In this document: positions 1,022-60,328 of the stretch, piece after piece
How positions within the stretch are numbered: the stretch's first letter is position 1
Layout: every line of letters starts with the position of its first letter
Assembly: GCA_049325535.1 (NCBI GenBank)
Contig: JBMOKY010000001.1
Span: 1,074,118 to 1,138,117 of the forward strand
Reading direction: 5' to 3'
Length of the DNA stretch: 64,000 bases
Source: Patescibacteria group bacterium
GTDB taxonomy: Bacteria > Patescibacteriota > Patescibacteriia > UBA10025 > JAHIVO01
Translations under genes and position numbers: made by a program
The notes under the pieces: generated by a model
The model's database searches: none
What the model saw: the letters and a program-made list of their open reading frames with translations, nothing else
Told to the model about the DNA's origin: nothing

Positions 1022-4099
<3,078 letters not shown>

Positions 4100-4177: not shown

Positions 4178-4300
4178 TTCCTGGCCTCTGGTGATCCAAG
4201 CCCCAGGGCCACACCTGATCCCATCCCGAACTCAGTAGTTAAGCCTGGGAGCGCCGATGATACTACGGGGCAAACCGTGGGGAAAGTAGGCCGTTGCCAG
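4178..4300 (+). rRNA. rrf: 5S ribosomal RNA
   Basis: The sequence cctggcctctggtgatcc...cccatcccgaactcagtagttaagcctgggagcgccgatgatactacgggg...ccgttgccag shows helix I 5'/3' complementarity, is about 123 nt long, and sits about 80 nt after the 23S. Confidence 0.85.
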
Positions 4301-4310
4301 TTTATCAAAG

Positions 4311-19672: not shown

Positions 19673-19755
19673 AACGTATAGTGACCTGCAGTATAGCATG
19701 CTCCAATATGCCCGTAAATGCAGAGGCATACTATTTCTGCTATACTGGGCATACT

Positions 19756-20253
19756 ATGCCCCTACTGCGCATCCCCTTTTTCCCTCAAAAAACCGATTAT
19801 ACCTGCGGCCCGGCGGCGATGCGGATGGTATTCGGATATTTCAAAAAAAGCGCTTCCGAAAAAAATCTAGCGCGACGGATGCGAACCAATCCGCGGCACG
19901 GCACCACCCATCAGGCCATGATCCGCGCCGCGCAGCAAGCCGGGTTCTATGTCTATGTCAATGAAATGGCAACGCTGGAAGAGCTTATATTCCTATTGTC
20001 CTGGCGCTGCCCGGTCATCGTCAACTATACTGAGCCGTCGGCAAATGAAGGACATTTCGCCGTCGTCACCGGCGTCACCAAAAAGAATGTCATCCTACAC
20101 GATCCCTGGAATGGAAAACGGTTTACCCTCAGCCGTCGCTCGTTTCTCGCCCGATGGCATGACCAATTGCCAAAAACCTACTCAAAAAACTGGCTGATGG
20201 CCATCAGCCGCAAAGATTTCCAGGTCGGCAAGCAATACCCACCAAAGAAATAA
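19756..20253 (+). CDS. Peptidase C39-like (papain-fold) domain protein, standalone
   Basis: QKTDYTCGPAAMRMV places the catalytic Cys in C39 context. There is a downstream His in a ...HFAVVTGV... region. No transporter is fused. Confidence 0.65.
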   Translation: MPLLRIPFFPQKTDYTCGPAAMRMVFGYFKKSASEKNLARRMRTNPRHGTTHQAMIRAAQQAGFYVYVNEMATLEELIFLLSWRCPVIVNYTEPSANEGHFAVVTGVTKKNVILHDPWNGKRFTLSRRSFLARWHDQLPKTYSKNWLMAISRKDFQVGKQYPPKK

Positions 20254-22059: not shown

Positions 22060-25000
22060 TTACGAGACGACGGGTGAGGCGGTTTTTTTCCACTCGCGCC
22101 GGGCGCGATACCGATGGGTGAACTCGATGAAGAGCGGGATGAATACGAGCGTACCAATCGTGGAAAAAGCCAAACCAGCGATCAGCGCTGCGCCCAATCC
22201 AGTCCAAAAAGGATCAAAAATGGTGATGGGAAGTACACCGCCGATCGTGGTAATGGTAGTGGCGAATATCGGCTGGAGACGCGCCATACCGGAACGAACC
22301 AGCAATTCGGTTGGTGACGTATTCGGGTCGTCACGCCGGAACCGATTATAGGTAGTGATGAGAACGATGGCATTGTTCACCACGATACCGATCAGAGCGA
22401 CGATGCCCAGCCCTGATACCATATTGATTGAACTCTGCACCGCAACCAGTCCGGGAAAAACGCCGATCAGCGCGAGGGGGATGGTAAACATGATCATAGT
22501 TGGCTGCCAAAACGAATTGAATTGATACACCAGTATCAGATACACGGCAATCATTGCCAGAATAAATACGATTTGCAGCCGTGAATAATCCGTGCCAAAA
22601 TCGGCAAATGCCCCACCATAGCTGACCCCATTCTCCGTCAAACCATATGATTTCAATTTTTCCGGGGTCACATATGCCTTGACTGCCGTATCGACGGTAG
22701 CTACATCGATACCGTCATCCAGTACCACACCGACCGTCGCCACCCGTTGCGCATCTAACCGCTGGATAGTGATGGTGCTTTCCCGGCTCTCCACCGCGGC
22801 CACCGATGCCAGTGGCACAATCCCGCGGGCAGCCGGAATAGGCAGTCCTTTGAGTCCGTCAATCGAATCGGTTCCCGCCCCCCCGAAGCGTATCGTCACA
22901 TCATCACTGACGCCATCCTCACGGAAGGTTGCCGAGCCCACTTTTTGCGGGGCAAAAAGCGCATTGACTGTACCGGCGGCAATGAGCGGATTCACGCCGG
23001 CGGCGGCTAATTTCGCTTCATCCAATTCTACCTGCACCGAGGGAACCAACAAATCTTTTGTAGAGTTTGTGGTTTTGGACACGCCCTCATACGCGTCCAG
23101 AAAACGCTGTATATCATCAGCCGCAGTCGACAGGGCTGTCCGGTCGCTGCCCAGGAATTCTATTTCCAAATCATACGCGCTCGATGGAGGGCCATAACTG
23201 GTACCGGACGATTCGATGGCCACGCCCGATCCGGCCGATTCGACGATGGCTGCTACGTCAGCATTAAATTGGTCGCTGATCTGGTGGATCGTTTTTCCGT
23301 CTGGGCGGTCCGCCGGTTTTGCAAAATTTGCATAGACGACATTGTCAAAAAAGTAAAACGTCTGAAAATACGGCAGCGCCACAAACATATCCATCGACTG
23401 CTGGAGGATTTCTTTTTGTCGCTCCAATGTCATGGTAACCGGAAAGGTATAATTTACCTGCATGACGTCGCTGTCGGTGGTCGGAAACTGCTCAAATTTC
23501 AATTGGGGGGCAAACACCCCGATACTGACACCCAGCAGCACTACCGTCAGTACTACCGTCAGTACCATGCGGCTCATTTTCGCGTATATCCAGTGCATCA
23601 ACCGGCCGTACCCACGCGCCATCCAATCCACGAAATTTTGGATCCGATGAATCAGCGCAGGCAGCACCAGAGCTTTTTCCCAATCTTTGATTGTCGCCTG
23701 GCGCCGCTGGTCATACGTCTGCTGTTTGAGCATCCAGCTGCCGAGCAGCGGGGTGATGCAGATCGCCATCAGATATGAAGCGCCCAGCATGATGATCACC
23801 GTATAGGGGATAAATTTCAAAAAATCCCCAATAATACCTCCCAAAAAAGCAAATGGAATGAACGCCACCACCGTCGTCAGTGTGGACGCGGTCACTGCCG
23901 GTCCGAATTTCCGTACTGATATCAGCGCCGCCTCCCGCTTCGTCACGCCCCGTTCAATCTCATGTTTGATCCCCTGCGCGATGACGATGGCATTGTCCAC
24001 GATGATGCCCAGGGTAAAAATCATGCCAAACAATGTGAGGATATTCAGGCTAAATCCGATGACCGGTAAAACAAAAATGGTAACCAAGAATGTCAGCGGA
24101 ATAATAGCCGCCACCAGCAGCGAAGTACGCAAATCAATAAAGAGTAAAAGCACCAGCGCTACCAATATGAGGCCGTATAGTCCATTTTGCAGCAAACTCG
24201 ACAGCTGATCCTGCACGTACGGCGCATTATCGTAGGCGATGACGATATCCATGCCTTCCGGAATAATCTTGTCATCCTTTATCTCGGTAAATTCCGCGCG
24301 CAAATCCTCAGACAACGTGATGATATCACCGCTGTCTTTTTTATACGCCAGTAGGTAGACCGCTTCGCGGGCAAATGACCCAGCCTCAGTCGTATATCCA
24401 ATAAAATGAGCGGCAGTGGCATCATTCGGCGTGCGGGTGATTGTAGCCAGGTCGCCCAATGTCAAAGTCCCGAGCGGGACAGCCGCCAGATCATCGATGG
24501 TCTGGGCGGCGGCGGATATGGTAATCGTCTGCTCGCTACCGTCGTCCATACTGATACTACCGCCGGGGATGGAGGTGATATATGACTGCACCGCTCCCTT
24601 CACCGTATCAAAGGTGAGCCCGCTGGCGACAAAAGCCGCCGTGTCAATCTGAATCTCTACAGAAAAGGTATTGTCGGGAATGATATCAATTTTTTTCAAT
24701 TGATCGGACGATGCCTCCAGACGTGTTTTCACCGCACTGGCATATTCGAGCATTTCACTGACTGACCTGCCATCGGCACTGACGATCCCCAGTGCCATGG
24801 AAACACCGGCCGCGTCAATAGTCTCGACATTGGTCTCCACTCCGGCGGGGAGACTGAGTTTGCCCAGTTCATCAGAGAGCGTGGCGGCGATGGCCGACAC
24901 CTGCTGGGTATTTTCCAGAGTAGCCACGACGCTGCCAAAATTACTGGCGGCCGTGGAGCGCACTTTGGTCACTCCGTCGATATTTTGTGCAGCCTGTTCA

Positions 25001-25224
25001 ATCGGCACCAGTACCGCCTGCTCGACATCTACGGGAGACGCTCCGGGATACACAGCCGAAACCACGATGATATTGATGGGAATCTTGGGGAAATCCTGAC
25101 GCTGATTTGAAGTGATGCCCCATATCCCCGCAAGTACGACGGCTACCAGGAGCAACACGGAGATGCGATACCGATCCATAAAAAAATGAGCCAGCCGCTC
25201 AGTCCAGTTTTCGTGGGATGTCAT
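22060..25224 (-). CDS. RND/MmpL-type efflux transporter permease (12 TM, two large extracytoplasmic loops)
   Basis: About 1050 aa with the characteristic duplicated TM1-loop-TM2-6 architecture and conserved TM4/TM10 charged residues. The start is at MTSHENW. Confidence 0.8.
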   Translation of the reverse strand: MTSHENWTERLAHFFMDRYRISVLLLVAVVLAGIWGITSNQRQDFPKIPINIIVVSAVYPGASPVDVEQAVLVPIEQAAQNIDGVTKVRSTAASNFGSVVATLENTQQVSAIAATLSDELGKLSLPAGVETNVETIDAAGVSMALGIVSADGRSVSEMLEYASAVKTRLEASSDQLKKIDIIPDNTFSVEIQIDTAAFVASGLTFDTVKGAVQSYITSIPGGSISMDDGSEQTITISAAAQTIDDLAAVPLGTLTLGDLATITRTPNDATAAHFIGYTTEAGSFAREAVYLLAYKKDSGDIITLSEDLRAEFTEIKDDKIIPEGMDIVIAYDNAPYVQDQLSSLLQNGLYGLILVALVLLLFIDLRTSLLVAAIIPLTFLVTIFVLPVIGFSLNILTLFGMIFTLGIIVDNAIVIAQGIKHEIERGVTKREAALISVRKFGPAVTASTLTTVVAFIPFAFLGGIIGDFLKFIPYTVIIMLGASYLMAICITPLLGSWMLKQQTYDQRRQATIKDWEKALVLPALIHRIQNFVDWMARGYGRLMHWIYAKMSRMVLTVVLTVVLLGVSIGVFAPQLKFEQFPTTDSDVMQVNYTFPVTMTLERQKEILQQSMDMFVALPYFQTFYFFDNVVYANFAKPADRPDGKTIHQISDQFNADVAAIVESAGSGVAIESSGTSYGPPSSAYDLEIEFLGSDRTALSTAADDIQRFLDAYEGVSKTTNSTKDLLVPSVQVELDEAKLAAAGVNPLIAAGTVNALFAPQKVGSATFREDGVSDDVTIRFGGAGTDSIDGLKGLPIPAARGIVPLASVAAVESRESTITIQRLDAQRVATVGVVLDDGIDVATVDTAVKAYVTPEKLKSYGLTENGVSYGGAFADFGTDYSRLQIVFILAMIAVYLILVYQFNSFWQPTMIMFTIPLALIGVFPGLVAVQSSINMVSGLGIVALIGIVVNNAIVLITTYNRFRRDDPNTSPTELLVRSGMARLQPIFATTITTIGGVLPITIFDPFWTGLGAALIAGLAFSTIGTLVFIPLFIEFTHRYRARREWKKTASPVVS

Positions 25225-25416
25225 ATGAATAATATGTTTGTTATTCCGCTTAAATAATTGCCCCAGTATACCTGCATCAGGGAGGATTGTCAAAGCTCGG
25301 AAAAACGCGCATATGCCCAAGGGCTCAAGTACGCGCAATGCGCCTTGTATCTTCATGGTAATTTACTTTTTTGCTATTTTGTGATATAATAAATCGCGTT
25401 AGTAAATAAAAAAACC

Positions 25417-26295
25417 ATGAAAAAAGTCACGAAAGTAATCATCCCCGCCGCTGGCTTTGGCACGCGTTTTTTACCGGTGACCAAAGCACAACCGAAGGAG
25501 ATGCTGCCGATCGTGGATAAACCGGTCATACAGTACGTGGTGGAAGAGGCGGTTGCCTCGGGTATTACCGACGTGATCATCGTCACCAGCTGGCAGAAAC
25601 GGTCTCTGGAAGATCATTTTGATTTTTCCCCTGAACTGGAAAAGCAACTGGAGGAAGCCGGCAAAACAGAAAAATTAAAGGAAATACGAGCCATTGCCAA
25701 AATGGCTAATTTTATTTATGTCCGCCAAAAAGGCCCCTACGGTAATGCTACTCCCGTCCTGAGCGCCCAGCATGTGATCGGAGAAGACGAGCCTTTTGCG
25801 GTGCTCTGGGGAGACGAATTTATCGCCAGCAAACCGCCACGCTTGAAACAGCTGATCGACGCCTTTAATGAATACGGGCATACGGTGATCAGCGCCTGTC
25901 GTGTCGCACCCGAACATTTGAACCGGTATGGTATCGCCGACATAGAACCGGTGCGAGATAACATTTACAATATCAAATCAATCATCGAAAAACCGGACCA
26001 ATCAAATGCTCCCTCCGACCTGGGGCTGCTCGGCGGATACGTCTTCACCCCAGCCATCATCGACCACCTGAATGCCATCAAGCCAGGCAAAGACAATGAG
26101 CTGTGGCTCATCGACGCCATCAACGCCCTGATGAAACGAGAACCGGTCTACGCCTGTGAAATCCAGAATGGAACATATTATGACACAGGCAGTAAACTCG
26201 AATACCTCAAGGCCAACATCGACTACGCCCTCCAGCGATCTGATCTGAAAGAAGACCTGGCCCACTACCTGAAAAAGAAAGTAGAAGAATTATGA
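25417..26295 (+). CDS. galU: UTP-glucose-1-phosphate uridylyltransferase
   Basis: VIIPAAGFGTRFLPVTKAQPKEMLPIVDKPVIQY is the canonical GalU N-terminal motif. Confidence 0.85.
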   Translation: MKKVTKVIIPAAGFGTRFLPVTKAQPKEMLPIVDKPVIQYVVEEAVASGITDVIIVTSWQKRSLEDHFDFSPELEKQLEEAGKTEKLKEIRAIAKMANFIYVRQKGPYGNATPVLSAQHVIGEDEPFAVLWGDEFIASKPPRLKQLIDAFNEYGHTVISACRVAPEHLNRYGIADIEPVRDNIYNIKSIIEKPDQSNAPSDLGLLGGYVFTPAIIDHLNAIKPGKDNELWLIDAINALMKREPVYACEIQNGTYYDTGSKLEYLKANIDYALQRSDLKEDLAHYLKKKVEEL

Positions 26296-27677
26296 AGAAA
26301 AAAACCACCCAACACGGCATGTCAAAAGTCATCATCCTGGCGCTGTTTGGGTTTATCGCCCTGGTCATCGCCGGGGTTATATTTATCATCATCGGATCAA
26401 AAGCAGCGCCCGCGCCAAAAGCCATGACCCTCACCATCTGGGGCGTCTGGGACGAGACGTCTGACCTGCAATCGATCATCAGCGCCTACCAGGGCGCCCA
26501 TCCCTATATCACCATTCGCTATGTGAAATTGCGCAGTGAGGAATACGAAGAACGGCTGCTGAAAGGATGGGCGACCAATTCCGGTCCCGATATCTATGCC
26601 CTGCCGGCCAGCTGGATAACCAAATATAAAACTGATTTCATCACCCCCGTCCCCAAATCGACAAAAGTCGCCTACTACACCACTAAGAAGGTCCTCTTCA
26701 AAACTGAAACCGTAATCACCGAGCAAACTGATCCCTCGTTGACCCCGAGTGACGTGCGGAGGAATTATGTCGATGTCGTCTATGATGATGTAGTTATCAA
26801 TGATAAAATATACGGTCTGCCGCTGGGTATCGACACGCTGGTCATGTACTACAACCGTGAATTACTAAACCAGGCGTCGCTAGTCCAGCCACCGGCCACC
26901 TGGAATGAATTTACCGCGGCGGTCAGCCGTCTGGCCTTGGTCGACGAGCAACAAAACATCGTCCGCGCCGCCACCGCGCTTGGCACGACTAACAATATCA
27001 CCCCGGCAACCGATATACTCACCCTGCTCATGCTGCAAAACGGAACGGTCATGACCCGGGGCAATACTATCACCTTCACCAGCGCTTCCGCCACTGACCC
27101 GAGCTACAACCCCGGCATCGAAGCGCTCCGATTCTACACCGATTTTGCCAATCCCCAAAAAGCAGTCTACACCTGGAATCCGGAACAACCCAATGCCCTG
27201 GATCAATTCGCTCAGGGCGAGCTGGCCTTCTTCTTCGGGTATAAATTCAATGAGCCGGAAATCAAATCAAAAAACCGCGGAGTGGACTATGATATCGCCC
27301 CGGTGCCGCAGGTCGATTTGAATAGCACGGTTAATTTCGCCAGCTATAATGTCTACACGGTAGCTAAGCAAAGCACGCACGCTAATGAAGCATGGAATTT
27401 CATCCAGTTTGCCAGTAATCCCAAACGGCTGAAACAATACCTAGCCGGTACCAGCCAGGCCAGCGCCGTTCGATCCGTGCTGAATGAACAGCTGGCCGAC
27501 CCATCAACCGCGGTGTTTGCCCAACAGGCGCTGACGGCAAAAAGCTGGTTCCATGGAAAAAATCCGGAGACAGTCAAGGAATCATTCACGGAAATGATTG
27601 ATACGGTGCTGGCCGACCCCGGACAGCTCCAGGCCGCGGTCAAGACGGCCGCCCAAAAAATACAACTCGGATACTAA
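26292..27677 (+). CDS. Extracellular solute-binding protein (ABC family-1 SBP fold), TM-anchored, no cognate permease adjacent
   Basis: An N-terminal TM anchor is followed by an approximately 420-aa SBP-like domain (LTIWGVWDE..., YGLPLGIDTLVMYYN). Confidence 0.65.
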   Translation: MKKKTTQHGMSKVIILALFGFIALVIAGVIFIIIGSKAAPAPKAMTLTIWGVWDETSDLQSIISAYQGAHPYITIRYVKLRSEEYEERLLKGWATNSGPDIYALPASWITKYKTDFITPVPKSTKVAYYTTKKVLFKTETVITEQTDPSLTPSDVRRNYVDVVYDDVVINDKIYGLPLGIDTLVMYYNRELLNQASLVQPPATWNEFTAAVSRLALVDEQQNIVRAATALGTTNNITPATDILTLLMLQNGTVMTRGNTITFTSASATDPSYNPGIEALRFYTDFANPQKAVYTWNPEQPNALDQFAQGELAFFFGYKFNEPEIKSKNRGVDYDIAPVPQVDLNSTVNFASYNVYTVAKQSTHANEAWNFIQFASNPKRLKQYLAGTSQASAVRSVLNEQLADPSTAVFAQQALTAKSWFHGKNPETVKESFTEMIDTVLADPGQLQAAVKTAAQKIQLGY

Positions 27678-27681
27678 ACCT

Positions 27682-29253
27682 ATGAAACGCAACCGCACCA
27701 CCCATTATGTCATCCTTGGCCTGAGCTTGGTGCTGCTGGTCACCTCACTGCTGCCGCGCCTGACTGCGGCGGCCGAATATGAACGCTATGAAAATGGCTG
27801 GGTGATCGTCCCCCCCGAATGCATCGATCCCAGCGTCGGTACCTGCGGATTAAATTCATTGGTGCAGTTATTTATCAATCTGGCCAATGTCGGACTGAAA
27901 GTGCTGCCCTACCTGACCATGATCATGATGATCTGGGCGGGTTTTAATCTGATCATGGCCGGTGGCAACCCAGAAAAGGTCCAAAGCGGAAAAAAAATGA
28001 TCTCATCGGTTCTGCTCGGCGTCATCATCGTCACTGTGCTTGCTTGGGCGTGGTCGTATTTTGTTGTGGTTATACTAACCGGTGAATATAATTTATTCCC
28101 AAACACGATATTTGAAAAAGCCTGGTGGGGCGGCGGCACCGTGGCTGAAGCGCCGCCAGGTACCGGCTGCTGCGTCATCAACACGCTCGGCTGTACCAAT
28201 AATACCCAGGAGCAGTGCGACAGCGCCCGGGCCTCGCTCCAGGCACTGGCCTATGTCACCGGTGGCACGGCACCCCAGGTATTTTGGCAGGGCGAAAACC
28301 AATTCTGCTATGAATTTCCGACTCAATGTAAAAATTATCAATTCGGCTGCTGCGTGCCGGTCGATCCAAATAATAAAACATGCTATAACGGCAACGAACG
28401 CGGGTGTCTCGATGTCGTCTTCCCCGGCGCCGGACAGCAGCAAGTGGCGGTGACATTCAATCCGACTAAATGCGCCAATCTCGCCGATCGCTGCGAAAAT
28501 ATCGTGGGTGAAGCGACAACTCAAACGTCTGACGGCTGCTGCGTCACCGGCAATTCATGCAATGCCGGCAGCAGCAGTACATGCAGCGGCCAATTTTATC
28601 CCGGTCAGAGCTGCAACACAGTCAATGACTGTACGGTCGGCTGCTGTGTGGGTACTGCCTCCTGCAGCGCCGGCAAAATAAATTGCACTGGTGTGTGGAA
28701 TGCCACATCATGTACAGAAGCACCGAATGACACAAATTGCACCATCGGCTGCTGTGAAGACACGCGCCAAGGCGCTGACCATGTCTCCTGCTACACATCG
28801 ATGACCGTGGCCGCCTGTGATGCCCGCACCGGGGGCAGCTTCATCTTCGATCCGTCCTTTGCTAATTGCCAGGGTCTGGTGGAGTGTTTCAACGGGTGCT
28901 GTACCGCCAATAACCAGTGTTCGAGCGGTAACATCGACGGGTCGTGCCCTGACCCAGTAAACAACTATGACGCCAACAGCGCTTGTGCCGGCAATCCCGC
29001 CTGTGACGAAGGATGTTGTCTTTTTTCGGATGCCACTACCTGCACCGACGGCATCATCCGGGACAATTGCAATGGCGTCTTCTACGGCGGCTTCTGCTCT
29101 GACCGTCATGAATGCTCAACCATCGGGTGCTGTAAAGATGTCATCAATGCATCAGGCGCCTGTATCGATGGCTACGCCGACGCTGCTTGTGGTGGATTCC
29201 CAAATGAATTCCACGAAGGCAGTTGCTCAGACGCACCATTCACCTGTCCTTAA
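27682..29253 (+). CDS. T4SS-type (TrbC/VirB2-like) pilin-like N-terminal domain fused to a roughly 360-aa cysteine-rich extension with eight GCC-x(n)-C repeats
   Basis: Signal/TM segment, then the pilin-like motif WAGFNLIMAGGNPEKVQSGKKMISSVLLGVIIV shared with the two downstream paralogs. Then 8 repeats each starting G-C-C (TGCCVINTLGC..., FGCCVPVDPNNKTC..., DGCCVTGNSCNAG..., VGCCVGTASCSAG..., IGCCEDTRQG..., NGCCTANNQCSSG..., EGCCLFSDATTC..., IGCCKDVINASGAC...). There are about 45 Cys and many N-x-S/T sequons. Confidence 0.7.
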   Translation: MKRNRTTHYVILGLSLVLLVTSLLPRLTAAAEYERYENGWVIVPPECIDPSVGTCGLNSLVQLFINLANVGLKVLPYLTMIMMIWAGFNLIMAGGNPEKVQSGKKMISSVLLGVIIVTVLAWAWSYFVVVILTGEYNLFPNTIFEKAWWGGGTVAEAPPGTGCCVINTLGCTNNTQEQCDSARASLQALAYVTGGTAPQVFWQGENQFCYEFPTQCKNYQFGCCVPVDPNNKTCYNGNERGCLDVVFPGAGQQQVAVTFNPTKCANLADRCENIVGEATTQTSDGCCVTGNSCNAGSSSTCSGQFYPGQSCNTVNDCTVGCCVGTASCSAGKINCTGVWNATSCTEAPNDTNCTIGCCEDTRQGADHVSCYTSMTVAACDARTGGSFIFDPSFANCQGLVECFNGCCTANNQCSSGNIDGSCPDPVNNYDANSACAGNPACDEGCCLFSDATTCTDGIIRDNCNGVFYGGFCSDRHECSTIGCCKDVINASGACIDGYADAACGGFPNEFHEGSCSDAPFTCP

Positions 29254-29278: not shown

Positions 29279-29689
29279 ATGAGTACTATGAGACCCAAAC
29301 TTTTACTCCTTGCCCTGATAGTGATGACAGGTGTATTGGTATGGTCGGTGATGTTACCCACCCCCGCTGCTCTAGCACAGGGTACCGGCACCAGCAGCGG
29401 GCCGACGCTACCAAACCCACTTGGTGAAAATGAAGATCATACGCCGATCAGTTTAATTGATGTGCTATTGCGTGTCTTGCAGATCGCGCTGGCAGCCGTG
29501 GATATTTTCGCCTTATTCATGTTCATCCTGGGCGGTTTCCAGCTCCTCATCTCCGCAGGGAATCCCGAGCGTATCAAAAAAGCCAAGGATACGCTGGTGT
29601 GGGCGACGCTGGGGGTGCTGGTCATCACCCTAAGCTATTCCATACTTAAATTCATTTTTGAAGCAGTTCGCAAGGAATTCGGTAATTAG
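29279..29689 (+). CDS. T4SS-type pilin-like protein (paralog 2)
   Basis: Signal peptide plus FMFILGGFQLLISAGNPERIKKAKDTLVWATLGVLVITL, the same motif as the neighbours. The start is at MSTMRPK or MRPK. Confidence 0.6.
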   Translation: MSTMRPKLLLLALIVMTGVLVWSVMLPTPAALAQGTGTSSGPTLPNPLGENEDHTPISLIDVLLRVLQIALAAVDIFALFMFILGGFQLLISAGNPERIKKAKDTLVWATLGVLVITLSYSILKFIFEAVRKEFGN

Positions 29690-29809: not shown

Positions 29810-30163
29810 ATGAAAAAATTAATTTCTCTCGTCGCGCTGGTTGCCGTGTTGGCACTCCCGGCCGTTGCTTCAGCTCAGGTCAATATCAATGACAATTTAG
29901 GTTCAACCTTTGGTCTTGGTACCGCTGACCTGGAAAATACCGTGATCAATGTCGTTCAGTGGGTACTCGGATTCCTCGGCTTGATCGCTGTTATCATGAT
30001 TTTAATCGGTGGCTTCCAGTGGATTACTGCTGGTGGTAATGAAGAAAAAGTTGCTTCAGCCAAGAAAGTCATCTCAGCCGCCGTTATTGGTTTAATCATC
30101 GTCCTGCTCGCCTGGGCTATCGTCATCTTCGTGGTCTCTCAGACCAACGATCTGACCAACTAG
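29810..30163 (+). CDS. T4SS-type pilin-like protein (paralog 3, canonical about 117 aa)
   Basis: Signal peptide MKKLISLVALVAVLALPAVASAQ, then IMILIGGFQWITAGGNEEKVASAKKVISAAVIGLIIVLLAWAI. It is preceded by a well-spaced promoter-like AT-rich region and followed by a terminator. Confidence 0.7.
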   Translation: MKKLISLVALVAVLALPAVASAQVNINDNLGSTFGLGTADLENTVINVVQWVLGFLGLIAVIMILIGGFQWITAGGNEEKVASAKKVISAAVIGLIIVLLAWAIVIFVVSQTNDLTN

Positions 30164-30258: not shown

Positions 30259-32259
30259 ATGTATCTCTGGCTACAGCAATTCCGCAACCGCCATGACACG
30301 CGTGCCCTCCTGACTATCGGCGCAGGTATTATTTGCTTTGTCGCGATTATCACCACTCTCGGACTGTATAAATATGCCAGTTTCGCGTATGACGCGATCG
30401 ACCTGGGCATCTATAGCCAGGTTTTTTATAATTCCGCACACGGCGATCTCTTTAGTTTCAGCATCCACCCACATAATTATCTGGGTGATCACTTTGAATT
30501 ATTCATTTTGGCTCTGCTGCCGATGTATCGGCTGTTTCAGCATCCCGTTGCCCTCATCGTGCTGCAGGCCATCGGACTGGGCTTGGGCGCCTGGCCGCTC
30601 TACCTGATCGCACGACGCTGGCTCCCACGACACTGGAGCCTGGGTATCACGGGCGCCTACCTGCTCAATCCGGTCGTCTGGAACATGGCGCTCTTCGAAT
30701 TCCATATATTACCTTTCGCCATTCCACTCATACTGGCGATGTATTACACATACCTGACAAACCGCCTCGGGTGGTTCTGGGTCTGGAGCCTCGTCGCACT
30801 GACCATACGCGAAGACGTATCGCTGGTGCTGATGGGGTTTGGCATCCTCGGGCTGATCGAAAAGCGACGCTGGACATGGGCTCTGCCCCCGCTGCTGGCA
30901 GGTGGTGTTTGGCTGATTGGCGCCACGCACCTGAGCGGTTATTTCAATGGATCGGATACATACAAATTCATCGCACTGTATTCCTGGCTGGGAGACTCGC
31001 TGCCCGACATGATCACCACCGTACTGACTCGTCCCTGGGTCGTGCTGCTGCACCTGCTCCGACCGGACAACTGGCTGCTGATGCTGGGACTATCGCTTCC
31101 CCTCGCCGGACTGCCACTCCTGCGCTGGAAATACTGGATACCGACCAGTTTCATCACCGTACAATTGTTCCTCACCAGCATCAGTGCCACTATCGTCCTG
31201 CAGACGCACTACGCGGCGCTGCTGATCCCCTCGGTCTGCGTAGCGGCCATCGCTGTACTCCAGCCCATCGCCGCGGGCATACCAATCCGCCACCGCGTCC
31301 TGAACCGGCTAGCACACTATCGCCAGTGGGTGGCTATCGTCGGAAGCGTGGCGGTCATTTACAGCTTCGTCACCTTTAGTCCCGCTAGCGCTCTATTTTC
31401 CCGTCCGAGCTATACTGCGGAAATTCCCGCCACCATAAGCGAAAAAAATGTTATTCTCGGGGCACTGCCCGAAAAGGCGGCTGTCGTCTCTGGTTTTGAT
31501 ACCCTCGCTGAGCTGAGCAGCCGCACCAAGCTGTACTCGCTGCACTACGGATTTTTGGGAGTGCGTCAGTTTAGCGCTACGCCATACGCTATCCCATCAC
31601 CAGTTGACCATGTCATCATGGATACCACTGATTTCGTCATCTTCCAGCTCCAATCCCAGACCATCTCCAGCTACCATGCCCAGTACACGACTGGGGCAGA
31701 ACGCCTGCGTAAACTAGTGGCCGATAATAATTTACACATAGCGAAAATCATGGACAGCGTCGTCTGGTTCAGCGCAGCTGCAGCCCGGCCGATAACCCCC
31801 GTAGCCACGGATGCGCTGCCGGGCGCCGATGCCATTATACTCGACGCACCCATTGATGAAGCGCTCTCGCTGGTCGCCTGGGAACGGTTACCGAGCGAAC
31901 AAGTGGTTCCCGAAACAACCATCGTGCCGATCCAGCTGTCCTGGTATACCAATCAACCGGTCACCACTGATTATACACTGGCGCTGACCGTACGTTCCGA
32001 TACGGGTGCGTTAGTATACAAAAAATTCTACCCGGTCGGATACGGGCTCTGGCCCACCAGCTCATGGCAACCGCAGCGACCGGTGCAAAGCAGCTATTGG
32101 TTTGCACTGCCTGATACTGTCCTCAAACCGCGCTACACCGTTTCGCTACAGGTTGTCTCGCTCACCGGCTACATGACGCTCGACGCGCTCCGGTCCACCC
32201 AGATGCACATCTCCAGCGAACGGTCATTCGGGCCGTCTATTCAGATTGTCGCGGAGTGA
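30259..32259 (+). CDS. DUF2079-family polytopic membrane protein with a large C-terminal extracytoplasmic domain (GT-C-like)
   Basis: N-terminal block YDAIDLGIYSQVFYNSAHGDLFSFSIHPHNYLGDHFELFILALLP and about 11 TM, then an approximately 300-aa soluble C-terminal region. Confidence 0.55.
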   Translation: MYLWLQQFRNRHDTRALLTIGAGIICFVAIITTLGLYKYASFAYDAIDLGIYSQVFYNSAHGDLFSFSIHPHNYLGDHFELFILALLPMYRLFQHPVALIVLQAIGLGLGAWPLYLIARRWLPRHWSLGITGAYLLNPVVWNMALFEFHILPFAIPLILAMYYTYLTNRLGWFWVWSLVALTIREDVSLVLMGFGILGLIEKRRWTWALPPLLAGGVWLIGATHLSGYFNGSDTYKFIALYSWLGDSLPDMITTVLTRPWVVLLHLLRPDNWLLMLGLSLPLAGLPLLRWKYWIPTSFITVQLFLTSISATIVLQTHYAALLIPSVCVAAIAVLQPIAAGIPIRHRVLNRLAHYRQWVAIVGSVAVIYSFVTFSPASALFSRPSYTAEIPATISEKNVILGALPEKAAVVSGFDTLAELSSRTKLYSLHYGFLGVRQFSATPYAIPSPVDHVIMDTTDFVIFQLQSQTISSYHAQYTTGAERLRKLVADNNLHIAKIMDSVVWFSAAAARPITPVATDALPGADAIILDAPIDEALSLVAWERLPSEQVVPETTIVPIQLSWYTNQPVTTDYTLALTVRSDTGALVYKKFYPVGYGLWPTSSWQPQRPVQSSYWFALPDTVLKPRYTVSLQVVSLTGYMTLDALRSTQMHISSERSFGPSIQIVAE

Positions 32260-33880
32260 CCGAATAAATGACGACGTGCGGCGTGCGGTGTGCTTCACGG
32301 AGATAGGGTTTCGTGCTCGGATCAAAGGATCCGAGTTCCTTTTCTTTGCGGCCGTACCAGACATACGTCACACGTCCGTCGCGGAGCAATTGCTCTTTTT
32401 CCGGGGGGTCAGCATCATCTGACCAAAATGCCTCACTGTCCTCAAATTTATATGGGAGGTCGATTGTCTGCGGGCCATGGCCGATCCACACTACCCGTCC
32501 ACTGTACGCCGGAATATAATTGCCCATATAGTAGCTGGAAAAAATCACGTCGGTATAATCCGTATGGTCACGCAGCCAATGCATGGCATCAACCTCATCC
32601 TGCATCAGGTAGTACGGCAGATCGTGTTTGGTGGTAAAAAGGAAAAAATCCTGCCCGAGTACCTGCAGATTGGACAGCGGCAAGAAAATTATTAGGCCCA
32701 TGACACCGGCGGTGGCCCATATGCCTCCGCGTTGCCTCAGCCGAGACCAGCACCACCAGACGCCAAAAAATGCCAGTAGGACCAGGGGTATCTGTACCCC
32801 TTCGGACATCCTCCGCTGGAACGATACCGGCACATACATCAGCACCAGAGTAACTAAAAACCACACGACCAAAAAAACACGGCTGGACTGCTGATCTTTG
32901 ATGATGCGCCAGATTCCCACTAGCGCCAGTGGCAGGAGCAATCCAAACCCGATCATATACATCCACAGGCTGGGCGAAGGCAGTATATTTTGCGCGGACC
33001 AATTTCGGATGACCCAATCCCGCTGCGCCAGAAGCCATAAATACAGCACCGGCGGCAGCGTACCCATGCCCAGTACCACATAATGCTGGATCCACTTCCA
33101 GTGAATACGTTTTGTGTGTACAAACCGCACGAGCATATAGACCAACAGCACGACAAACACCGTCGGGCCATTGAACGGGTGAAACCATACCAGAAAAAAA
33201 CTGCTCACCGCGGCGCCGATGCTGTACCGCCACCGGTTGGTGTCAAACGCCCGCAGCATGCAATACAGTGTCAACACGAGAAGCGTCAGCGATGCGAGCA
33301 AATGAGGGGAGTGGAGCGCCGACAGAAAATTGACACTTTCTGCAATCCAGATGTCCGTCGGGTGCTCATAGATGTTATTCACATCAAATAAAAACGGATT
33401 AAAAAATACACCTAAACCGGAAGCAAACAGAAGCATGGCTAGTGCCCAGCGTCGAGCACGCGCATTCGTAATGAAATATGACAAAAACCGATAGAGCACA
33501 AAAACAAAAATAACGATCCAGATTGACCGAGCGATATGCAAAGCCAGTAAATTTGAAATACCGTCTTTCTTGGTGAGCCACCCGACGGACAGCCAGAGTG
33601 GATTGATAAAAGCTCGCGCCTGTTCTTCGTGCGTGTACAGATTGATAAAGACATTTTCCCCTTGCCTGACCTGCTCGATCATGGAAAGAAATACATTGGT
33701 GTCCCCCGGGGCCAGGTGATGCAGACCGGTAAAGACGGTGCCGGCAGGACGGGTCACATACCCATAGAGGAAAGGCGCGGCAGTAAGCAGCACGAGAACC
33801 AGGGCCATGCCAAGCGGAAATATCCACTCACGATGCCGTGTTTTAGACGTTGAATTTTTTTTCGTATGTATAGGTTCCAT
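32237..33880 (-). CDS. Polytopic membrane protein, GT-C-fold glycosyltransferase-like (YfhO/ArnT-like architecture)
   Basis: Roughly 13 TM plus a C-terminal soluble domain. No nucleotide-binding motifs are seen. Confidence 0.5.
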   Translation of the reverse strand: MEPIHTKKNSTSKTRHREWIFPLGMALVLVLLTAAPFLYGYVTRPAGTVFTGLHHLAPGDTNVFLSMIEQVRQGENVFINLYTHEEQARAFINPLWLSVGWLTKKDGISNLLALHIARSIWIVIFVFVLYRFLSYFITNARARRWALAMLLFASGLGVFFNPFLFDVNNIYEHPTDIWIAESVNFLSALHSPHLLASLTLLVLTLYCMLRAFDTNRWRYSIGAAVSSFFLVWFHPFNGPTVFVVLLVYMLVRFVHTKRIHWKWIQHYVVLGMGTLPPVLYLWLLAQRDWVIRNWSAQNILPSPSLWMYMIGFGLLLPLALVGIWRIIKDQQSSRVFLVVWFLVTLVLMYVPVSFQRRMSEGVQIPLVLLAFFGVWWCWSRLRQRGGIWATAGVMGLIIFLPLSNLQVLGQDFFLFTTKHDLPYYLMQDEVDAMHWLRDHTDYTDVIFSSYYMGNYIPAYSGRVVWIGHGPQTIDLPYKFEDSEAFWSDDADPPEKEQLLRDGRVTYVWYGRKEKELGSFDPSTKPYLREAHRTPHVVIYSVTPRQSE

Positions 33881-39158: not shown

Positions 39159-40607
39159 CTACGATGAGTGGGGCATGACTCTACCGGGCCATTTTTTCCC
39201 CATGATTGTATTCCATTGTACCATGAGGAAATAAAGTGCAACACTGACGCCAAAGAGCACATTCGGGAAGAAAACGCTCAGGCTGGCATAGTACATAAAA
39301 CCATAGAGAGTCGTCAATATGATCAGCGGCCGATAGTGCCGCTCGGGGACCAGCAGTGCCAATGGCACAAACCACAGGGTATACCAAACATTAAACTTCC
39401 CTCCCAATAAAAACAAGAACACCAATAACACCCAAAACCACCGCTTGATAAATGTATCAACCAGTGTCTCACTCCGCCGGAAAAGAAGCATGATATACAC
39501 CACGAGGAAGGTCAATAAATAGCTGGCGCGCTGGGTCACCAGATCAAAATGAAATCCTGGAATCACCCCATCCAACCACGACATGAGAGCGTAGAGCATA
39601 CTCTGGGGAAGCGTCAGATTATTATCAGTGACAAAAGCGCGGCCCAAATTGCCAATATTACGGTCAAAATTGTGCAGCGGTGCATAGGTTGCCAGCACCA
39701 TGCCGGTCACAATCAAGGCTCCGAGACCGATCGTCCGCCAGGCCTGGCGACGGGGCAAACGCAATGCCAGGAGCGCCACAAACGGCAATAAAATAATCGG
39801 GCCGAATTTGATGAGAAACGCGCCAGTGAGAAAGGTCGCCGCCCAGAGATAGCGAGTGCGAATCACCGCATACACTGCCGCCAGGACAAGCGTCATCATA
39901 AAGACGTCATTATGCGCCGAGTGAACCGCCTCGAACAGTATAAAAGGATTCCAGGCAAAAAGCGCGGTGACCGCATATCGACTCTGGGGTATGACACGCT
40001 CGGCGATTTTGTATACCAGCCATACGCACAGTAAAAATGCGGCGGCAGCGACCAGCCGATAGCCTATCAGGTTTGCTACCACATCCCCGCCGATGAGGCG
40101 GGACAGCAGCAAGGAGTAATTCATAAATAAGGGCCCATACACCGACACCTGTTCCGGCCAAGCTACCACCCCGCTATAGCCGAGCGCTGCGGGGGATATT
40201 TGGTATGGATTTGCATCGTGGGTATTGGCAATGACAGCCCGAGAGATATAGCCGTACACATCCGAAGAAAAAAATGGTGGGCTTAAAAATAAAATGCATA
40301 TGAATATGCAGACAAAGAAAATAACAATGGCGAGAGTCCGTGAATCATGTGCCAATTTCGCACCCTTCCACAAAAATAAAATATATACACCCAAAAACGC
40401 AAATAGAAAAAACGCGACCATTCCCAGGTGAGTAAAGAATACCCCGGCATGCCGCATCAGCGGTTTCGTTTCCTCCGGAGAACTAGAAATGACCATCAGG
40501 GTAAAGGCAAAAAAGAACGCGGCAAACAGGGTGCCCCACTGCCACAGGCGGCGATAGCGCTCATCGCGGGCCGAACTGAAAAAATTTGCAATTGTTGCCA
40601 ACATCAT
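39159..40607 (-). CDS. GT-C-fold membrane glycosyltransferase-like protein (DUF2029/GT87-like)
   Basis: About 12 TM with short loops. Translationally coupled within the operon. Confidence 0.5.
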   Translation of the reverse strand: MMLATIANFFSSARDERYRRLWQWGTLFAAFFFAFTLMVISSSPEETKPLMRHAGVFFTHLGMVAFFLFAFLGVYILFLWKGAKLAHDSRTLAIVIFFVCIFICILFLSPPFFSSDVYGYISRAVIANTHDANPYQISPAALGYSGVVAWPEQVSVYGPLFMNYSLLLSRLIGGDVVANLIGYRLVAAAAFLLCVWLVYKIAERVIPQSRYAVTALFAWNPFILFEAVHSAHNDVFMMTLVLAAVYAVIRTRYLWAATFLTGAFLIKFGPIILLPFVALLALRLPRRQAWRTIGLGALIVTGMVLATYAPLHNFDRNIGNLGRAFVTDNNLTLPQSMLYALMSWLDGVIPGFHFDLVTQRASYLLTFLVVYIMLLFRRSETLVDTFIKRWFWVLLVFLFLLGGKFNVWYTLWFVPLALLVPERHYRPLIILTTLYGFMYYASLSVFFPNVLFGVSVALYFLMVQWNTIMGKKWPGRVMPHSS

Positions 40608-40609
40608 AA

Positions 40610-41836
40610 TTATTTGAGCTGGTGGTTTACCCTGAGCGCATCATCAACGGAACTGTTCATCCGGATCAAATACAAAGTATAGATAATAAGTACCGTACAC
40701 AGGATGATGACCGCTGAAATAGCGGCGTACCCAAATGACTGCGGCCCCCACACCTGCCAGATCAATGGAAACGACGCATAATTAAGTATATCATACACCA
40801 CCACCAGCCATATCAAGCGTTTGTCCGCCACCAGGATGATAAGTGGCACGGCCCAGATGATCCACTGAGGTGAATAAAACCGCGAGCAGAGGGTAAAAAT
40901 GAGCACGCCGAGCGCCATCCAGCCAGCCAGCTGCGCCGGCGTGGTGAGATACCGCATCAGCACCCGGGGCTGTATGAGCGCCACCAGCGGCAATGAGAAT
41001 TGCAGCAGCAGGAATATCGTCAGACCAAGGTAATTCAGCTGTTCAATCCCGGTCGAGAGCAACGGCCCCTGCACGAACAGATAATACAGGCTACCCACGC
41101 CTCCCGGACGCGCTCCGTGAAAAAAATACGGCCTGAGCGAAGTAAATCCGTCAAAAACAAAAGACAGTGCCAAAAAGCCGATGACGACGGCAGCGCCATA
41201 CCCCAGGAACTGCCGCTGGGATGATCGAGCCATGACACCTTCGGTCTGCCGGATATACAGATACATCAGCGGCACAAAAATAACCGGATACCATTTGGTG
41301 AGTATGGCGATGGCAAAGACGATGGCGGCCATACGCCAGCGCCGCGATAGTACCAGCCACAGGCCAATCTGTACCCCAAGCGCCACCAACACGTCAAAAC
41401 GATTCATACCAAAATACAGTAACGACGGCAGCGCCAGAAGCAGCACCAACCACGGCGACCGCTGCAATCTTCGCAAGAGTCGCACGGTGACATAGACGAG
41501 GCCAAGGTACACCGCCAGATTCATGATGATAAATACCGTGCGATATGTATCATAGCCACCGGTAAAGATATACGGGAGGGTGATATACCCCAGTCCAATC
41601 TGCGGATACTCCTGAAAAATGCTGGCATCATAGGGAGTGACCCCCTGGGTGACCCAGCTGCCGCGATCATGAAATACGCTGATCTCATGGTCATCCCGCA
41701 GCAAGCGAGCCCGCGTCCCTTCGCTGAGCCAGTCAGTGGCGACAAAATCCGGAGCAAATAGCACAAATGTGCCGGCGGCCCCGACGATGATCATGGCCAG
41801 CCACATTGCCCATCGGGATGAAACCAATCTCATCAT
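40610..41836 (-). CDS. GT-C-fold membrane glycosyltransferase-like protein (DUF2029/GT87-like)
   Basis: About 11 TM. Translationally coupled to both neighbours. Confidence 0.5.
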   Translation of the reverse strand: MMRLVSSRWAMWLAMIIVGAAGTFVLFAPDFVATDWLSEGTRARLLRDDHEISVFHDRGSWVTQGVTPYDASIFQEYPQIGLGYITLPYIFTGGYDTYRTVFIIMNLAVYLGLVYVTVRLLRRLQRSPWLVLLLALPSLLYFGMNRFDVLVALGVQIGLWLVLSRRWRMAAIVFAIAILTKWYPVIFVPLMYLYIRQTEGVMARSSQRQFLGYGAAVVIGFLALSFVFDGFTSLRPYFFHGARPGGVGSLYYLFVQGPLLSTGIEQLNYLGLTIFLLLQFSLPLVALIQPRVLMRYLTTPAQLAGWMALGVLIFTLCSRFYSPQWIIWAVPLIILVADKRLIWLVVVYDILNYASFPLIWQVWGPQSFGYAAISAVIILCTVLIIYTLYLIRMNSSVDDALRVNHQLK

Positions 41837-60056: not shown

Positions 60057-60328
60057 AGAGTGTTTAAATTAATACAATGATAGTAAGAATAATAAGGTGG
60101 GTGGATAAGTGGATAAATGTATTTATATTTATTTCCATTGGATGAAATTTATGAGATGCCGGGAAAAATTGTGGGTGAGGGTGTGCGGGAAATGATGTTT
60201 GGTTGGGGATGATGCGTAGTGCCGATTCAGATCAGAGCCGGCAGCGAATACTTATACTCTTTTGATGAACGGTTTATGCTCAGACTTGCCACCGAAACAC
60301 ATCCGCTCATACGCATGTTATACACAGG
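60057..60328. promoter_or_regulatory. Candidate oriC (dnaA-dnaN intergenic): AT-rich unwinding region plus DnaA-box-like 9-mers
   Basis: GGTGGATAA (60100-60108) and AGTGGATAA (60108-60116) are each 1 mismatch from TGTGGATAA. TTATACACA (60318-60326) is 1 mismatch from TTATCCACA. AT-rich stretches lie at 60060-60095 and 60120-60150. Confidence 0.5.

Follow-up and report, generated by a model that had tools for sequence, protein, structure and literature searches.

The window, the whole 64-kb stretch of DNA analysed here, encodes an extended VirB2-like pilin with a Cys-rich tail (27682..29253, stop codon included; 523 aa by ORF list and translation; this and all other features given with coordinates below lie on the + strand), whose product runs from a signal peptide through a VirB2-like two-helix hairpin and a WWGG motif into eight modules (aa 162-523). 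The likely start is the ATG at 27682 (MKRNRTT...), with the stop of the upstream gene 4 nt before it; a longer form initiated at the TTG at 27598 is unlikely, because homologues begin at the position aligned with the ATG. Directly upstream, here and consistently in relatives, is the gene for a membrane-anchored SBP_bac_1 solute-binding protein (SBP; 26292..27677; Pfam, E=4e-22). The long pilin is followed by a short VirB2-like pilin of about 136 aa that has no Cys tail (29279..29689, ATG at 29279; PF18895, 30.3 bits) and by a third array gene, a short VirB2-like pilin of 117 aa with the best PF18895 match (29810..30163; 50.1 bits), both of which pass the gathering score of 26.6. A DUF2079 polytopic membrane protein (30259..32259; Pfam, E=1.8e-45) comes after the three pilins in all loci.

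This cassette, in the order NTP_transferase, SBP, long pilin, pilin, pilin and DUF2079, recurs in four distant loci (L001, L003-L005), in which the positions of both short paralogues are kept and the long pilins are 35-60% identical to the window protein. It sits within a cell-envelope glycan cluster comprising DUF2079, GT87/PMT_2, GT2, GT4 and flippase genes. No VirB4, VirD4 or VirB6 was found among the 46 ORFs of the window scanned with Pfam, or within 10 kb of L001, L003, L004 and L005. VirB2-like pilin arrays of 2-11 genes are described as known and essential in Patescibacteria, and the essential arrays of Saccharibacteria as lying inside T4SS loci (Quinonero-Coronel 2025, PMC12102498; Wang 2023, PMC10633639). 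The tandem array of divergent pilin genes found here resembles those arrays (PMC12102498), but it is adjoined by no VirB4 or T4SS genes and lies instead within the NTP-transferase, SBP, three-pilin, DUF2079 cassette. Extended pilins are not mentioned in passages of the Patescibacteria and T4SS literature (including PMC12102498, PMC10633639 and PMC6744442), and a full-text search returned no paper joining Patescibacteria, cysteine-rich and pilin.

The original prediction had placed a Cys-rich repeat extension on a pilin-like protein at this locus, and its ORF, repeats and coordinates proved real. It had also raised the concern that the region might be an artefact, a frameshifted fusion such as an assembly chimera; a pilin gene would then have been joined to an unrelated Cys-rich ORF. 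By sequence comparison the probability of such an artefact is practically negligible: no point in its favour was found, and the 523-aa pilin is a single uninterrupted reading frame. A near-identical protein (P0001) comes from an independent Logan assembly, a 1.1-Mb Kerfeldbacteria contig carries a full-length orthologue that is 60% identical, and 18 further full-length homologues were recovered from NCBI, JGI, ENA and Logan. These 20 homologues, from independent Patescibacteria/Kerfeldbacteria assemblies, have the same architecture with 2-11 modules each, and their modules align one to one across species.

The VirB2-like hairpin and its predicted topology

The N-terminus carries a signal peptide or N-terminal anchor (aa 1-31, MKRNRTTHYVILGLSLVLLVTSLLPRLTAAA; 27682..27774), visible as a hydropathy segment at aa 6-31 and as a helix at residues 4-27 of the model, and the signal peptide would be cleaved. 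Ahead of helix 1 is a Cys pair, C47/C55 (C-x7-C; 27820..27846); in the homologue alignment every sequence has C55, and the place of the first Cys is also conserved. The VirB2/T4SS_pilin-like hairpin itself (27850..28080) consists of helix 1 (aa 57-92), a basic loop (NPEKVQSGKKM) and helix 2 (aa 97-133). Between helix 2 and the first module, the linker contains a WWGGG motif (aa 148-152; 28123..28137), of which W148, W149, G150 and G151 are invariant columns of the alignment; the surrounding residues 142-156 were modelled at pLDDT below 50. Cleavage at WWGG by a C39-like peptidase, encoded 8 kb upstream, was another idea, dropped because no evidence supported it.

By hydropathy and model, the long pilin has the T4SS_pilin layout of a signal peptide, two hydrophobic helices and a short charged loop (AGGNPEKVQSGK), and VirB2/TrbC-type conjugative pilins likewise have a signal peptide, two hydrophobic helices and a short basic loop. 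Its PF18895 (T4SS_pilin) match of 20.3 bits falls under the gathering score of 26.6, and a precomputed match to this family is present in several full-length homologues. The helical hairpin can be overlaid on TrwL, TraM and an archaeal conjugative pilin, and may share the fold of such pilins. The description of the N-terminal domain as pilin-like stands in the sense of a VirB2-like protein with a weak PF18895 match; the pilins of type IV pili are a different kind. In classical VirB2 pilins, which measure about 70-120 aa, no further domain is appended, whereas here a 362-aa Cys-rich ectodomain follows helix 2.

The predicted topology would put this extension outside the cell, as originally proposed, given the signal peptide, the basic loop between the helices and the position of the C-terminus after helix 2. 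Sec export and signal-peptide cleavage would leave the loop in the cytoplasm and both ends of the hairpin outside, so that the whole Cys-rich tail would lie beyond the membrane, where oxidation can occur.

Eight six-cysteine modules

The tail consists of eight tandem modules that follow the formula G-C-C-x5-11-C-x6-8-C-x8-29-C-x5-8-C. The original prediction had counted 5-7 Cys per repeat and about 45 in all; the repeats were borne out and the counts were not, since every one of the eight modules has exactly six Cys, giving 48 in 362 aa (13% Cys). The G-C-C codons begin at 28165, 28345, 28534, 28639, 28747, 28894, 29011 and 29125, each within 9 nt of the position first given for it. Module 1 (aa 162-221, 60 aa; 28165..28344) has a long loop 4 with a predicted helix, and module 2 (aa 222-284, 63 aa; 28345..28533) includes a 13-aa linker. 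They are followed by module 3 (aa 285-319, 35 aa; 28534..28638), module 4 (aa 320-355, 36 aa; 28639..28746), module 5 (aa 356-404, 49 aa; 28747..28893) and module 6 (aa 405-443, 39 aa; 28894..29010). Module 7 (aa 444-481, 38 aa; 29011..29124) resembles the family consensus most closely and gave pLDDT 82 when modelled by itself, and module 8 (aa 482-523, 42 aa; 29125..29250) forms the C-terminal end, ...C-P.

The modules are thus 35-63 aa long, most are joined by linkers of 2-3 residues, and their pairwise identity is only about 25-40%. Where 9.4 matches to GGNTGYTGY would be expected, the 64-kb window contains 21, a count reached by none of 100 shuffles, and eight of the 21 matches share one frame inside about 1 kb. 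TRF found no DNA-level tandem repeat, which indicates that the module duplications are old and rules out a recent DNA duplication. The tail is acidic (36 D/E vs 12 K/R) and rich in Asn, Ser, Thr and Gly. AlphaFold models of the modules, at pLDDT 80-88, show a small beta-hairpin with a third strand and short helical turns; the model of the long pilin has a pTM of 0.43, at which inter-module geometry is unreliable.

The view that this is not a known disulfide-rich module held up: the tail, searched whole and in thirds, has no match in Pfam or NCBIfam at E<=10, GCC2_GCC3 included, and phmmer found none among PDB sequences. EGF, TNFR CRD, granulin and thionin/crambin modules are also 35-45 aa long with six Cys, tandem with short linkers, and extracellular, but the register of the modules described here differs in opening with a CC doublet and in its putative C1-C5 pairing. 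Crambin and EGF sequences gave background scores against the module profile.

Conservation across the homologues bears on the state of the Cys residues. Exactly six Cys are present in 140 of the 160 CC-delimited units of the 21 proteins, and the Cys count of the extension is even in all 21. Module 4 has an orthologue in P0016, P0017 and P0034 from which both C1 (GCC to GTC) and C5 are gone, while all its other Cys are kept. Because the number is always even and C1 and C5 disappear as a pair, the tail is very probably disulfide-bonded, as had been predicted, most likely with three disulfides per module, one of which is C1-C5. Furthermore, the Cys columns are invariant, the other residues of the tail are 17-51% identical and the hairpin is 55-75% identical; invariant Cys with variable residues elsewhere is the pattern expected of a disulfide scaffold with exposed variable loops. 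Oxidative folding of the tail is plausible, since an MdbA-like oxidoreductase and VKOR are enriched among CPR genomes (PMC6744442); the scanned window ORFs include no Dsb, MdbA or VKOR gene by Pfam.

The very high Cys content and the acidity of the domain would also suit a metal-binding or redox cluster, in which the 48 Cys ligate Zn, Fe or Cu or buffer thiols. Many Patescibacteria inhabit anoxic groundwater, where disulfide formation is harder, and this counts for the same explanation. It is nevertheless highly improbable, because an extracytoplasmic site, a strictly even Cys number and the paired loss of C1 and C5 fit disulfides and not sites with three or four ligands, and because the tail has no His or CxxC-type motifs. 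The compact, beta-rich knots given by AlphaFold are typical of disulfide domains, and the 16 Cys of the possibly related IRHD of iRhom (see below) form 8 disulfides in cryo-EM structures (PMC11248996). The idea that the tail carries a modification of the ranthipeptide or sactipeptide type was set aside, as no radical-SAM neighbour was seen.

The tail had also been described as dense in sequons and possibly glycosylated, a claim that fared less well. Seven N-x-S/T sites are present, and the composition of the tail, rich in Asn, Ser and Thr, predicts 5.1 +/- 2.0 (shuffle test, P=0.23), so that the sequons are no independent feature; none of the 21 proteins shows an enrichment. An N-glycosylated tip adhesin, in which these sequons serve as N-linked sites coating the Cys-rich domain, could draw on the seven sites, on that composition and on the nearby genes for GT-C-type membrane glycosyltransferases (DUF2079, GT87/PMT_2). 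It is improbable, however, since only one site in the tail has the extended D/E-x-N-x-S/T form, sequon positions are poorly conserved among homologues, and no STT3/PglB-type enzyme was found with Pfam among the window ORFs scanned. The most recurrent sequon of the homologues, an N-x-T after C3 of module 5, is absent from the window protein and falls on a polar-x-x-Thr consensus that is conserved in the module itself. O-glycosylation of the tail by PMT-like enzymes is possible.

Possible roles of the extended pilin

The interpretation preferred here, which we regard as somewhat probable, is that the first gene of the three-pilin array encodes a surface-displayed, disulfide-stapled stalk or adhesin. 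The eight six-Cys modules would form a genuine C-terminal ectodomain, each locked by three disulfides, and the short linkers of 2-3 residues would make of them a semi-rigid stalk, acidic and rich in Asn, Ser, Thr and Gly, that hangs from the VirB2-like (T4SS_pilin) helix-loop-helix hairpin. The hairpin may join the two short pilins in low copy or may just remain anchored in the membrane, and the stalk would reach out across the cell wall, serving as a spacer or as an adhesin that touches a host cell or a surface. If each subunit bore a 360-aa tail, a tightly packed VirB2-type fibre could probably not accommodate them, so that incorporation, if it occurs, must be sparse or terminal. Within this proposal the architecture, how it is conserved, the regular Cys pattern and the absence of matches to catalogued families are observed, the disulfides, the topology and the rigidity of the tail are predicted features, adhesion and incorporation into a pilus are hypothetical, and the "tip" or "adhesin" role put forward originally is a reasonable inference.

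Alternatively, the hairpin might never polymerise, and the protein would then be a bitopic envelope protein with the tail as a strut or spacer in, or just above, the wall or S-layer; such a strut would not be a fibre adhesin but could set a constant spacing for the envelope or for the SBP next to it. This anchor-only role is possible but rather unlikely. In other relatives with this hairpin, helix 2 is immediately followed by a PG_binding_1 domain (PF01471, E 1e-7 to 1e-9), at the position of the modules, which suggests that it lies near the wall, but a PG-binding passenger might just as well target the wall of a host. The lack of T4SS machinery in the scanned window and around the four cassette loci, the envelope-glycan setting of the cassette and the tight coupling of the anchored SBP upstream are likewise in keeping with an anchor. 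Against it, the fixed order of three paralogous pilins and the conservation of the hairpin suggest constraints from subunit-subunit packing, and the pilin arrays of Saccharibacteria, as noted above, are essential and belong to T4SS loci. The variation in module number (2-11) and the occurrence of PG_binding_1 at the same position make the hairpin look like a carrier, perhaps a general one, for extracellular passenger domains.

VirB2-like arrays are among the few features experimentally tied to the host-dependent life of Patescibacteria, and they are essential in Southlakia epibionticum. One concrete candidate for the contact-making part is this conserved pilin, with its ectodomain of 2-11 modules or, in relatives, a PG-binding domain. 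For experiments, it could supply an epitope for antibodies, be targeted by CRISPRi or deletion, or be expressed recombinantly.

Relatives of the module and the iRhom lead

The original prediction had proposed a wider search for the repeat, and a profile built from the module finds 175 representative proteins at E<=1e-3, the best of them at E 1e-44. The majority come from other bacteria and are secreted repeat proteins without a pilin part; one is amoebal (Mastigamoeba balamuthi). Among 839 aligned module matches, 732 have all six Cys. The family register, CC-x(3-17)-C-x(6-11)-C-x(8-29)-C-x(3-15)-C in tandem, with Gly before CC and Gly-x-aromatic before C5, describes all eight window modules and 140 of the 160 homologue units. 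The consensus of the secreted bacterial "G-x-C-C" repeat is GACCLPDGSCxxxTxxxCxxxGGxFxGxGxxCxxxxC. These proteins share with the pilin modules the CC, C, C, C, C register, the Gly before CC with an aliphatic residue after it, and the Gly-x-aromatic before C5, and they too are tandem, with 2-28 modules (28 copies in the amoebozoan protein). They differ in that 133 of 163 have no pilin hairpin, in that they end, unlike the long pilin, in IPTL-CTERM, GC-type dockerin or PEP-CTERM-like tags, and in that their modules show less variation (about 38-45 aa). Because neither Pfam nor NCBIfam has a model of the repeat in the "G-x-C-C" proteins, the pilin modules are related to an uncatalogued family and not to a characterised one, and the module defines a protein repeat family missing from both collections.

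When the module profile was compared with the PDB at E<=10, the only matches were two stretches of iRhom2 (E=0.002), in one of which, 36 residues long, all six Cys are in register. Both stretches reach 20-22 bits, whereas shuffles with the Cys held fixed give 4-7 bits and none of 3000 attains the real score; crambin and EGF controls gave no signal. The hhalign comparison of the modules with the IRHD gave a probability of only 26% (P=7e-4). Two IRHD fragments searched against a large protein collection recovered only short vertebrate exon fragments, too uniform for a useful IRHD profile. The IRHD, as seen by cryo-EM (8snl, 9o58), is luminal or extracellular and fully disulfide-bonded, but it forms a single compact domain with 16 Cys that sits between TM1 and TM2 in a rhomboid-like protein, whereas the modules here form a tandem array on a pilin; neither Pfam nor the model shows a rhomboid core in the long pilin. 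The relationship is accordingly offered as a lead, a weak but specific profile match.

A joint reading can be built on this lead, in which an ancient, scattered and uncatalogued G-C-C module, the unit of the animal IRHD, was grafted onto a VirB2-like pilin, yielding "extended pilins" for host contact that would equip a T4SS-related filament of the Gram-positive type with an adhesive stalk braced by disulfides. Taken as a whole this combination is doubtful; if the iRhom link is true, the modules would be the first non-animal relatives of the IRHD. The fold of the IRHD has been called unprecedented.

Architecture of the long pilin and its cysteine-rich modules

The first gene of the three-pilin array (27682-29253, + strand) encodes a 523-aa protein (MKRNRTT...). 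An N-terminal signal peptide or anchor occupies aa 1-31 and precedes two paired cysteines, C47 and C55. Next come two long hydrophobic helices, at aa 57-92 and 97-133, with the basic loop NPEKVQSGKKM between them, and then a linker, modelled with low confidence, that contains an invariant WWGG motif. The remainder of the protein, starting at aa 162, consists of eight units, all opening with Gly-Cys-Cys. While a mechanical ORF call opens further 5', at TTG 27598, the ATG at 27682 is the likely start codon, because it lies 4 nt past the stop of the upstream gene, aligns with the starts of all homologues and directly precedes a hydrophobic signal-like segment. The N-terminal domain, which contains the VirB2-like two-helix hairpin, scored 20.3 bits against the T4SS_pilin family (PF18895), under its gathering score of 26.6, which the two genes downstream exceed with 30.3 and 50.1 bits. 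By the positive-inside rule, the tail would be extracytoplasmic.

The original prediction described eight cysteine-rich GCC repeats with five to seven cysteines apiece. The repeats are present, and the positions first given are all within 9 nt of the actual G-C-C codons (28165, 28345, 28534, 28639, 28747, 28894, 29011 and 29125, + strand), but each contains exactly six cysteines. The arrangement is more regular than had been described: all eight units follow G-C-C-x5-11-C-x6-8-C-x8-29-C-x5-8-C, accounting for 48 cysteines in the 362-residue tail. The eight-repeat observation is real and statistically solid. The 64-kb window contains 21 matches to GGNTGYTGY versus 9.4 expected (0 of 100 shuffles reached 21), with 8 of the 21 sharing one frame inside 1 kb. 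The units vary in length from 35 to 63 aa and are 25-40% identical to one another, and TRF detected no DNA-level tandem repeat in the array, which together argue that it is old.

Homologues, probable disulfides and predicted structure

A search covering 5.8 billion proteins recovered the same protein from an independent assembly, along with 20 homologues, several of which bear the name 'pilin' or a Patescibacteria/Kerfeldbacteria assignment. For nineteen of them, identity to the window protein is 33-60%; P0021, the weakest, shows 28% over 29% of the query, with the hairpin as the main shared part. All 20 have a cysteine-rich tail as well as hairpin and WWG motif, module k aligns with module k across species, and the cysteine columns are invariant or nearly so. 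A frameshift or chimeric assembly was ruled out as the source of the protein by the independent assembly and by this shared architecture, with its modules aligned one-to-one. When one genome per species was scanned, 19 loci were recovered. Most come from MAGs titled Patescibacteria or Kerfeldbacteria; the title 'uncultured Gammaproteobacteria' on five TPA bins was taken to be a mislabelling.

Across homologues, identity is 55-75% in the hairpin and 17-51% at non-cysteine tail residues, and hairpin relatives carry 2, 4, 5, 7, 8, 10 or 11 modules. Others carry a PG_binding_1 domain (E values of 1e-7 to 1e-9), with or without cysteine modules or a beta-rich domain; it seems that this hairpin serves Patescibacteria as a general carrier for passenger domains outside the cell. 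A conserved carrier with an apparently exposed passenger, variable in both sequence and length, fits a surface stalk or adhesin. The more distant relatives with PG_binding_1 (PF01471) after helix 2 include P0021 and the pilin ORFs of four related loci (L019, L021, L022 and L023); in some, two G-C-C modules follow PF01471, and others end in a beta-rich C-terminal domain.

Disulfide stabilisation of the tail, as originally proposed, is probable, given its predicted extracytoplasmic location, the even number of tail cysteines in all 21 proteins (range 12-66) and the paired loss of two cysteines. Exactly six cysteines are found in 140 of 160 CC-delimited units, and 13 contain ten, comprising a six-cysteine module and then a degenerate four-cysteine one. 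In three homologues (P0016, P0017 and P0034), the module 4 orthologue starts with G-T-C and has Leu or Ile at the fifth cysteine position (C5), while C2, C3, C4 and C6 are kept; this joint loss of C1 and C5 argues for a C1-C5 cystine. An MdbA-like thiol-disulfide oxidoreductase and VKOR are reported to be over-represented in CPR genomes (PMC6744442); genes for neither were found among the window ORFs scanned.

An AlphaFold2 model built with an 18-sequence alignment had a mean pLDDT of 76 and a pTM of 0.43, with values up to 80-88 in the modules and below 50 at the N-terminus and in the linker (aa 142-156). Each module is predicted to comprise a beta-hairpin, formed by the GCC strand and a strand beside C3, then a short turn of helix, a third beta-strand bearing the conserved aromatic residue and, close to C5-C6, a short helix. 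One module modelled alone, using 121 paralogous modules as the alignment, reached a pLDDT of 82. Only 2-3 residues separate C6 from the next G-C-C, which suggests that the array may be fairly stiff.

The expectation of dense sequons and a glycosylated domain fared less well. The tail contains 7 N-x-S/T sequons versus 5.1 ± 2.0 in same-composition shuffles (P=0.23), only one of the extended D/E-x-N-x-S/T type, and none of 21 homologues (0/21) showed an excess. The window protein lacks the sequon that recurs most often among homologues (N-x-T following C3 in module 5), which overlaps a polar...Thr position conserved in the module as such. Membrane glycosyltransferases abound nearby (DUF2079, two GT87/PMT_2-like, one GT2 and two GT4 proteins), accompanied by one flippase, and no STT3-type enzyme was seen among the window ORFs scanned. 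Because sequons are at the level set by composition and no such enzyme was seen, N-glycosylation is unsupported.

A wider module family and its possible link to iRhom

Neither the whole tail nor its thirds matched Pfam or NCBIfam at E<=10, phmmer found no match among all PDB sequences, and Foldseek against the PDB returned noise only. The initial impression was borne out: a pilin-like protein is fused to an unrecognised, extracytoplasmic module that is probably rich in disulfides. When a profile built from 121 modules was run against 1.84 billion representative proteins, it matched 175 at E<=1e-3, with 38 of them reaching E<=1e-10; the pilin hairpin was present in 30 of 163 examined and absent from 133. 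Nearly all of the latter are repeat proteins of 2-28 modules (consensus GACCLPDGSC-x3-T-x3-C-x3-GG-x-F-x-G-x3-C-x4-C), most of which open with a signal-peptide-like N-terminus and many of which end in IPTL-CTERM, GC-type dockerin, PEP-CTERM-like or 'SWGxIKSIYR' tails; the CC doublet is missing from a few of the lowest-scoring matches. The 28-module protein, P0024, is from the amoebozoan Mastigamoeba balamuthi (EukProt). Together with P0022 and P0023 (both bacterial; 1143-1672 aa), it consists almost wholly of 21-28 copies of the six-cysteine module. No Pfam or NCBIfam model covered the repeat in ten profile-matched proteins. The repeat family is absent from Pfam, NCBIfam and the PDB, and it supplies a novel passenger for the VirB2-like pilin.

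At E<=10, the module profile matched iRhom2 alone in the PDB (8snl_B and 9o58_B; E=0.002-0.003), in two stretches, GCCVQNDHSGCIQTQRKDC...F and one of 36 letters, that correspond to cysteine-rich units of the luminal iRhom homology domain (IRHD; 8snl_B residues 469-495 and 571-608). Shuffles of these stretches with cysteines fixed scored 4-7 bits versus 20-22 for the real sequences (0 of 3000 reached the real score), and no signal was obtained with EGF or with crambin, another CC-start six-cysteine fold. Against a relationship, alignment of module and IRHD by hhalign gave a probability of only 26% (P=7e-4), and two structure searches found no connection between the models and iRhom2. The IRHD contains 8 disulfides in a fold that was called unprecedented (PMC11248996). 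The likeness is a specific, as yet unproven, similarity and, if true, bacterial and amoebozoan relatives of the IRHD would be new.

Genomic setting and proposed function

The same gene order is found in four loci where the long pilin has 35-60% identity to the one described here: NTP_transferase, anchored SBP_bac_1, long pilin, ~135-aa pilin, 117-aa pilin and DUF2079, followed on the opposite strand by a ~540-aa membrane protein without a Pfam match; PGA_cap lies just upstream in three of the four. The N-terminally anchored solute-binding protein (26292-27677, + strand) stops 4 nt before the long pilin start, and SBP-to-pilin gaps are a few nucleotides. In all four loci it lies directly upstream of the array with no adjoining ABC permease or ATPase, and this orphan protein may work with the pilins. 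VirB4, VirD4 and VirB6 were found neither within 10 kb in the four loci nor among the window ORFs scanned. Arrays of 2-11 VirB2-like pilin genes occur in Patescibacteria and are essential in Southlakia epibionticum, according to the accessible portions of two reports (PMC12102498, PMC10633639), and no mention of pilins with a large C-terminal domain was found in those portions of the literature on such arrays. As the most likely function we slightly favour that the first pilin of the array displays a disulfide-stapled stalk or adhesin; the main rival, a purely membrane-anchored envelope strut, appears less likely.

Large polytopic membrane proteins flank the array, including DUF2079 (30259-32259, +) and others at 32237-33880 (−) and 39159-43449 (−); the set comprises DUF2079, two proteins without Pfam match (547 and 538 aa) and two GT87/PMT_2-like proteins, accompanied by a Polysacc_synt flippase, a hexapeptide acyltransferase, two GT4 and one GT2. 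The surroundings look like a cell-envelope glycan cluster. An AcrB/RND-family transporter (22060-25356, −; 1098 aa, E=1.9e-133) lies directly upstream of the cassette, in an organism that is presumably monoderm. A stand-alone 190-aa Peptidase_C39-like cysteine protease (19681-20253, +) is encoded ~7.4 kb upstream of the long pilin, with a similar gene in the same neighbourhood of two related loci (L001 and L003). C39 enzymes cleave after Gly-Gly; that this one might process the long pilin at its invariant WWGG(G), which separates hairpin from tail, is pure speculation.

The positions of dnaN and dnaA (58956-61690, −) and yidC (62637-63437, +), together with a GC-skew sign change near 60-62 kb, place the replication origin probably at ~61.7-62.6 kb, ~31 kb from the pilin array. 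In some Patescibacteria, T4SS genes are reported to be close to dnaA (PMC12102498).

The window contains 23S (1028-4095, +) and 5S (4187-4302, +) rRNA genes and no 16S rRNA gene; the 23S match spans 3068 nt versus 2925 model positions, and the gene may hold a small insertion. A 297-aa protein (14512-15405, +) has two cytochrome b5-like heme/steroid-binding domains (E=2.5e-36), which are unusual for a member of a group said to lack a respiratory chain.
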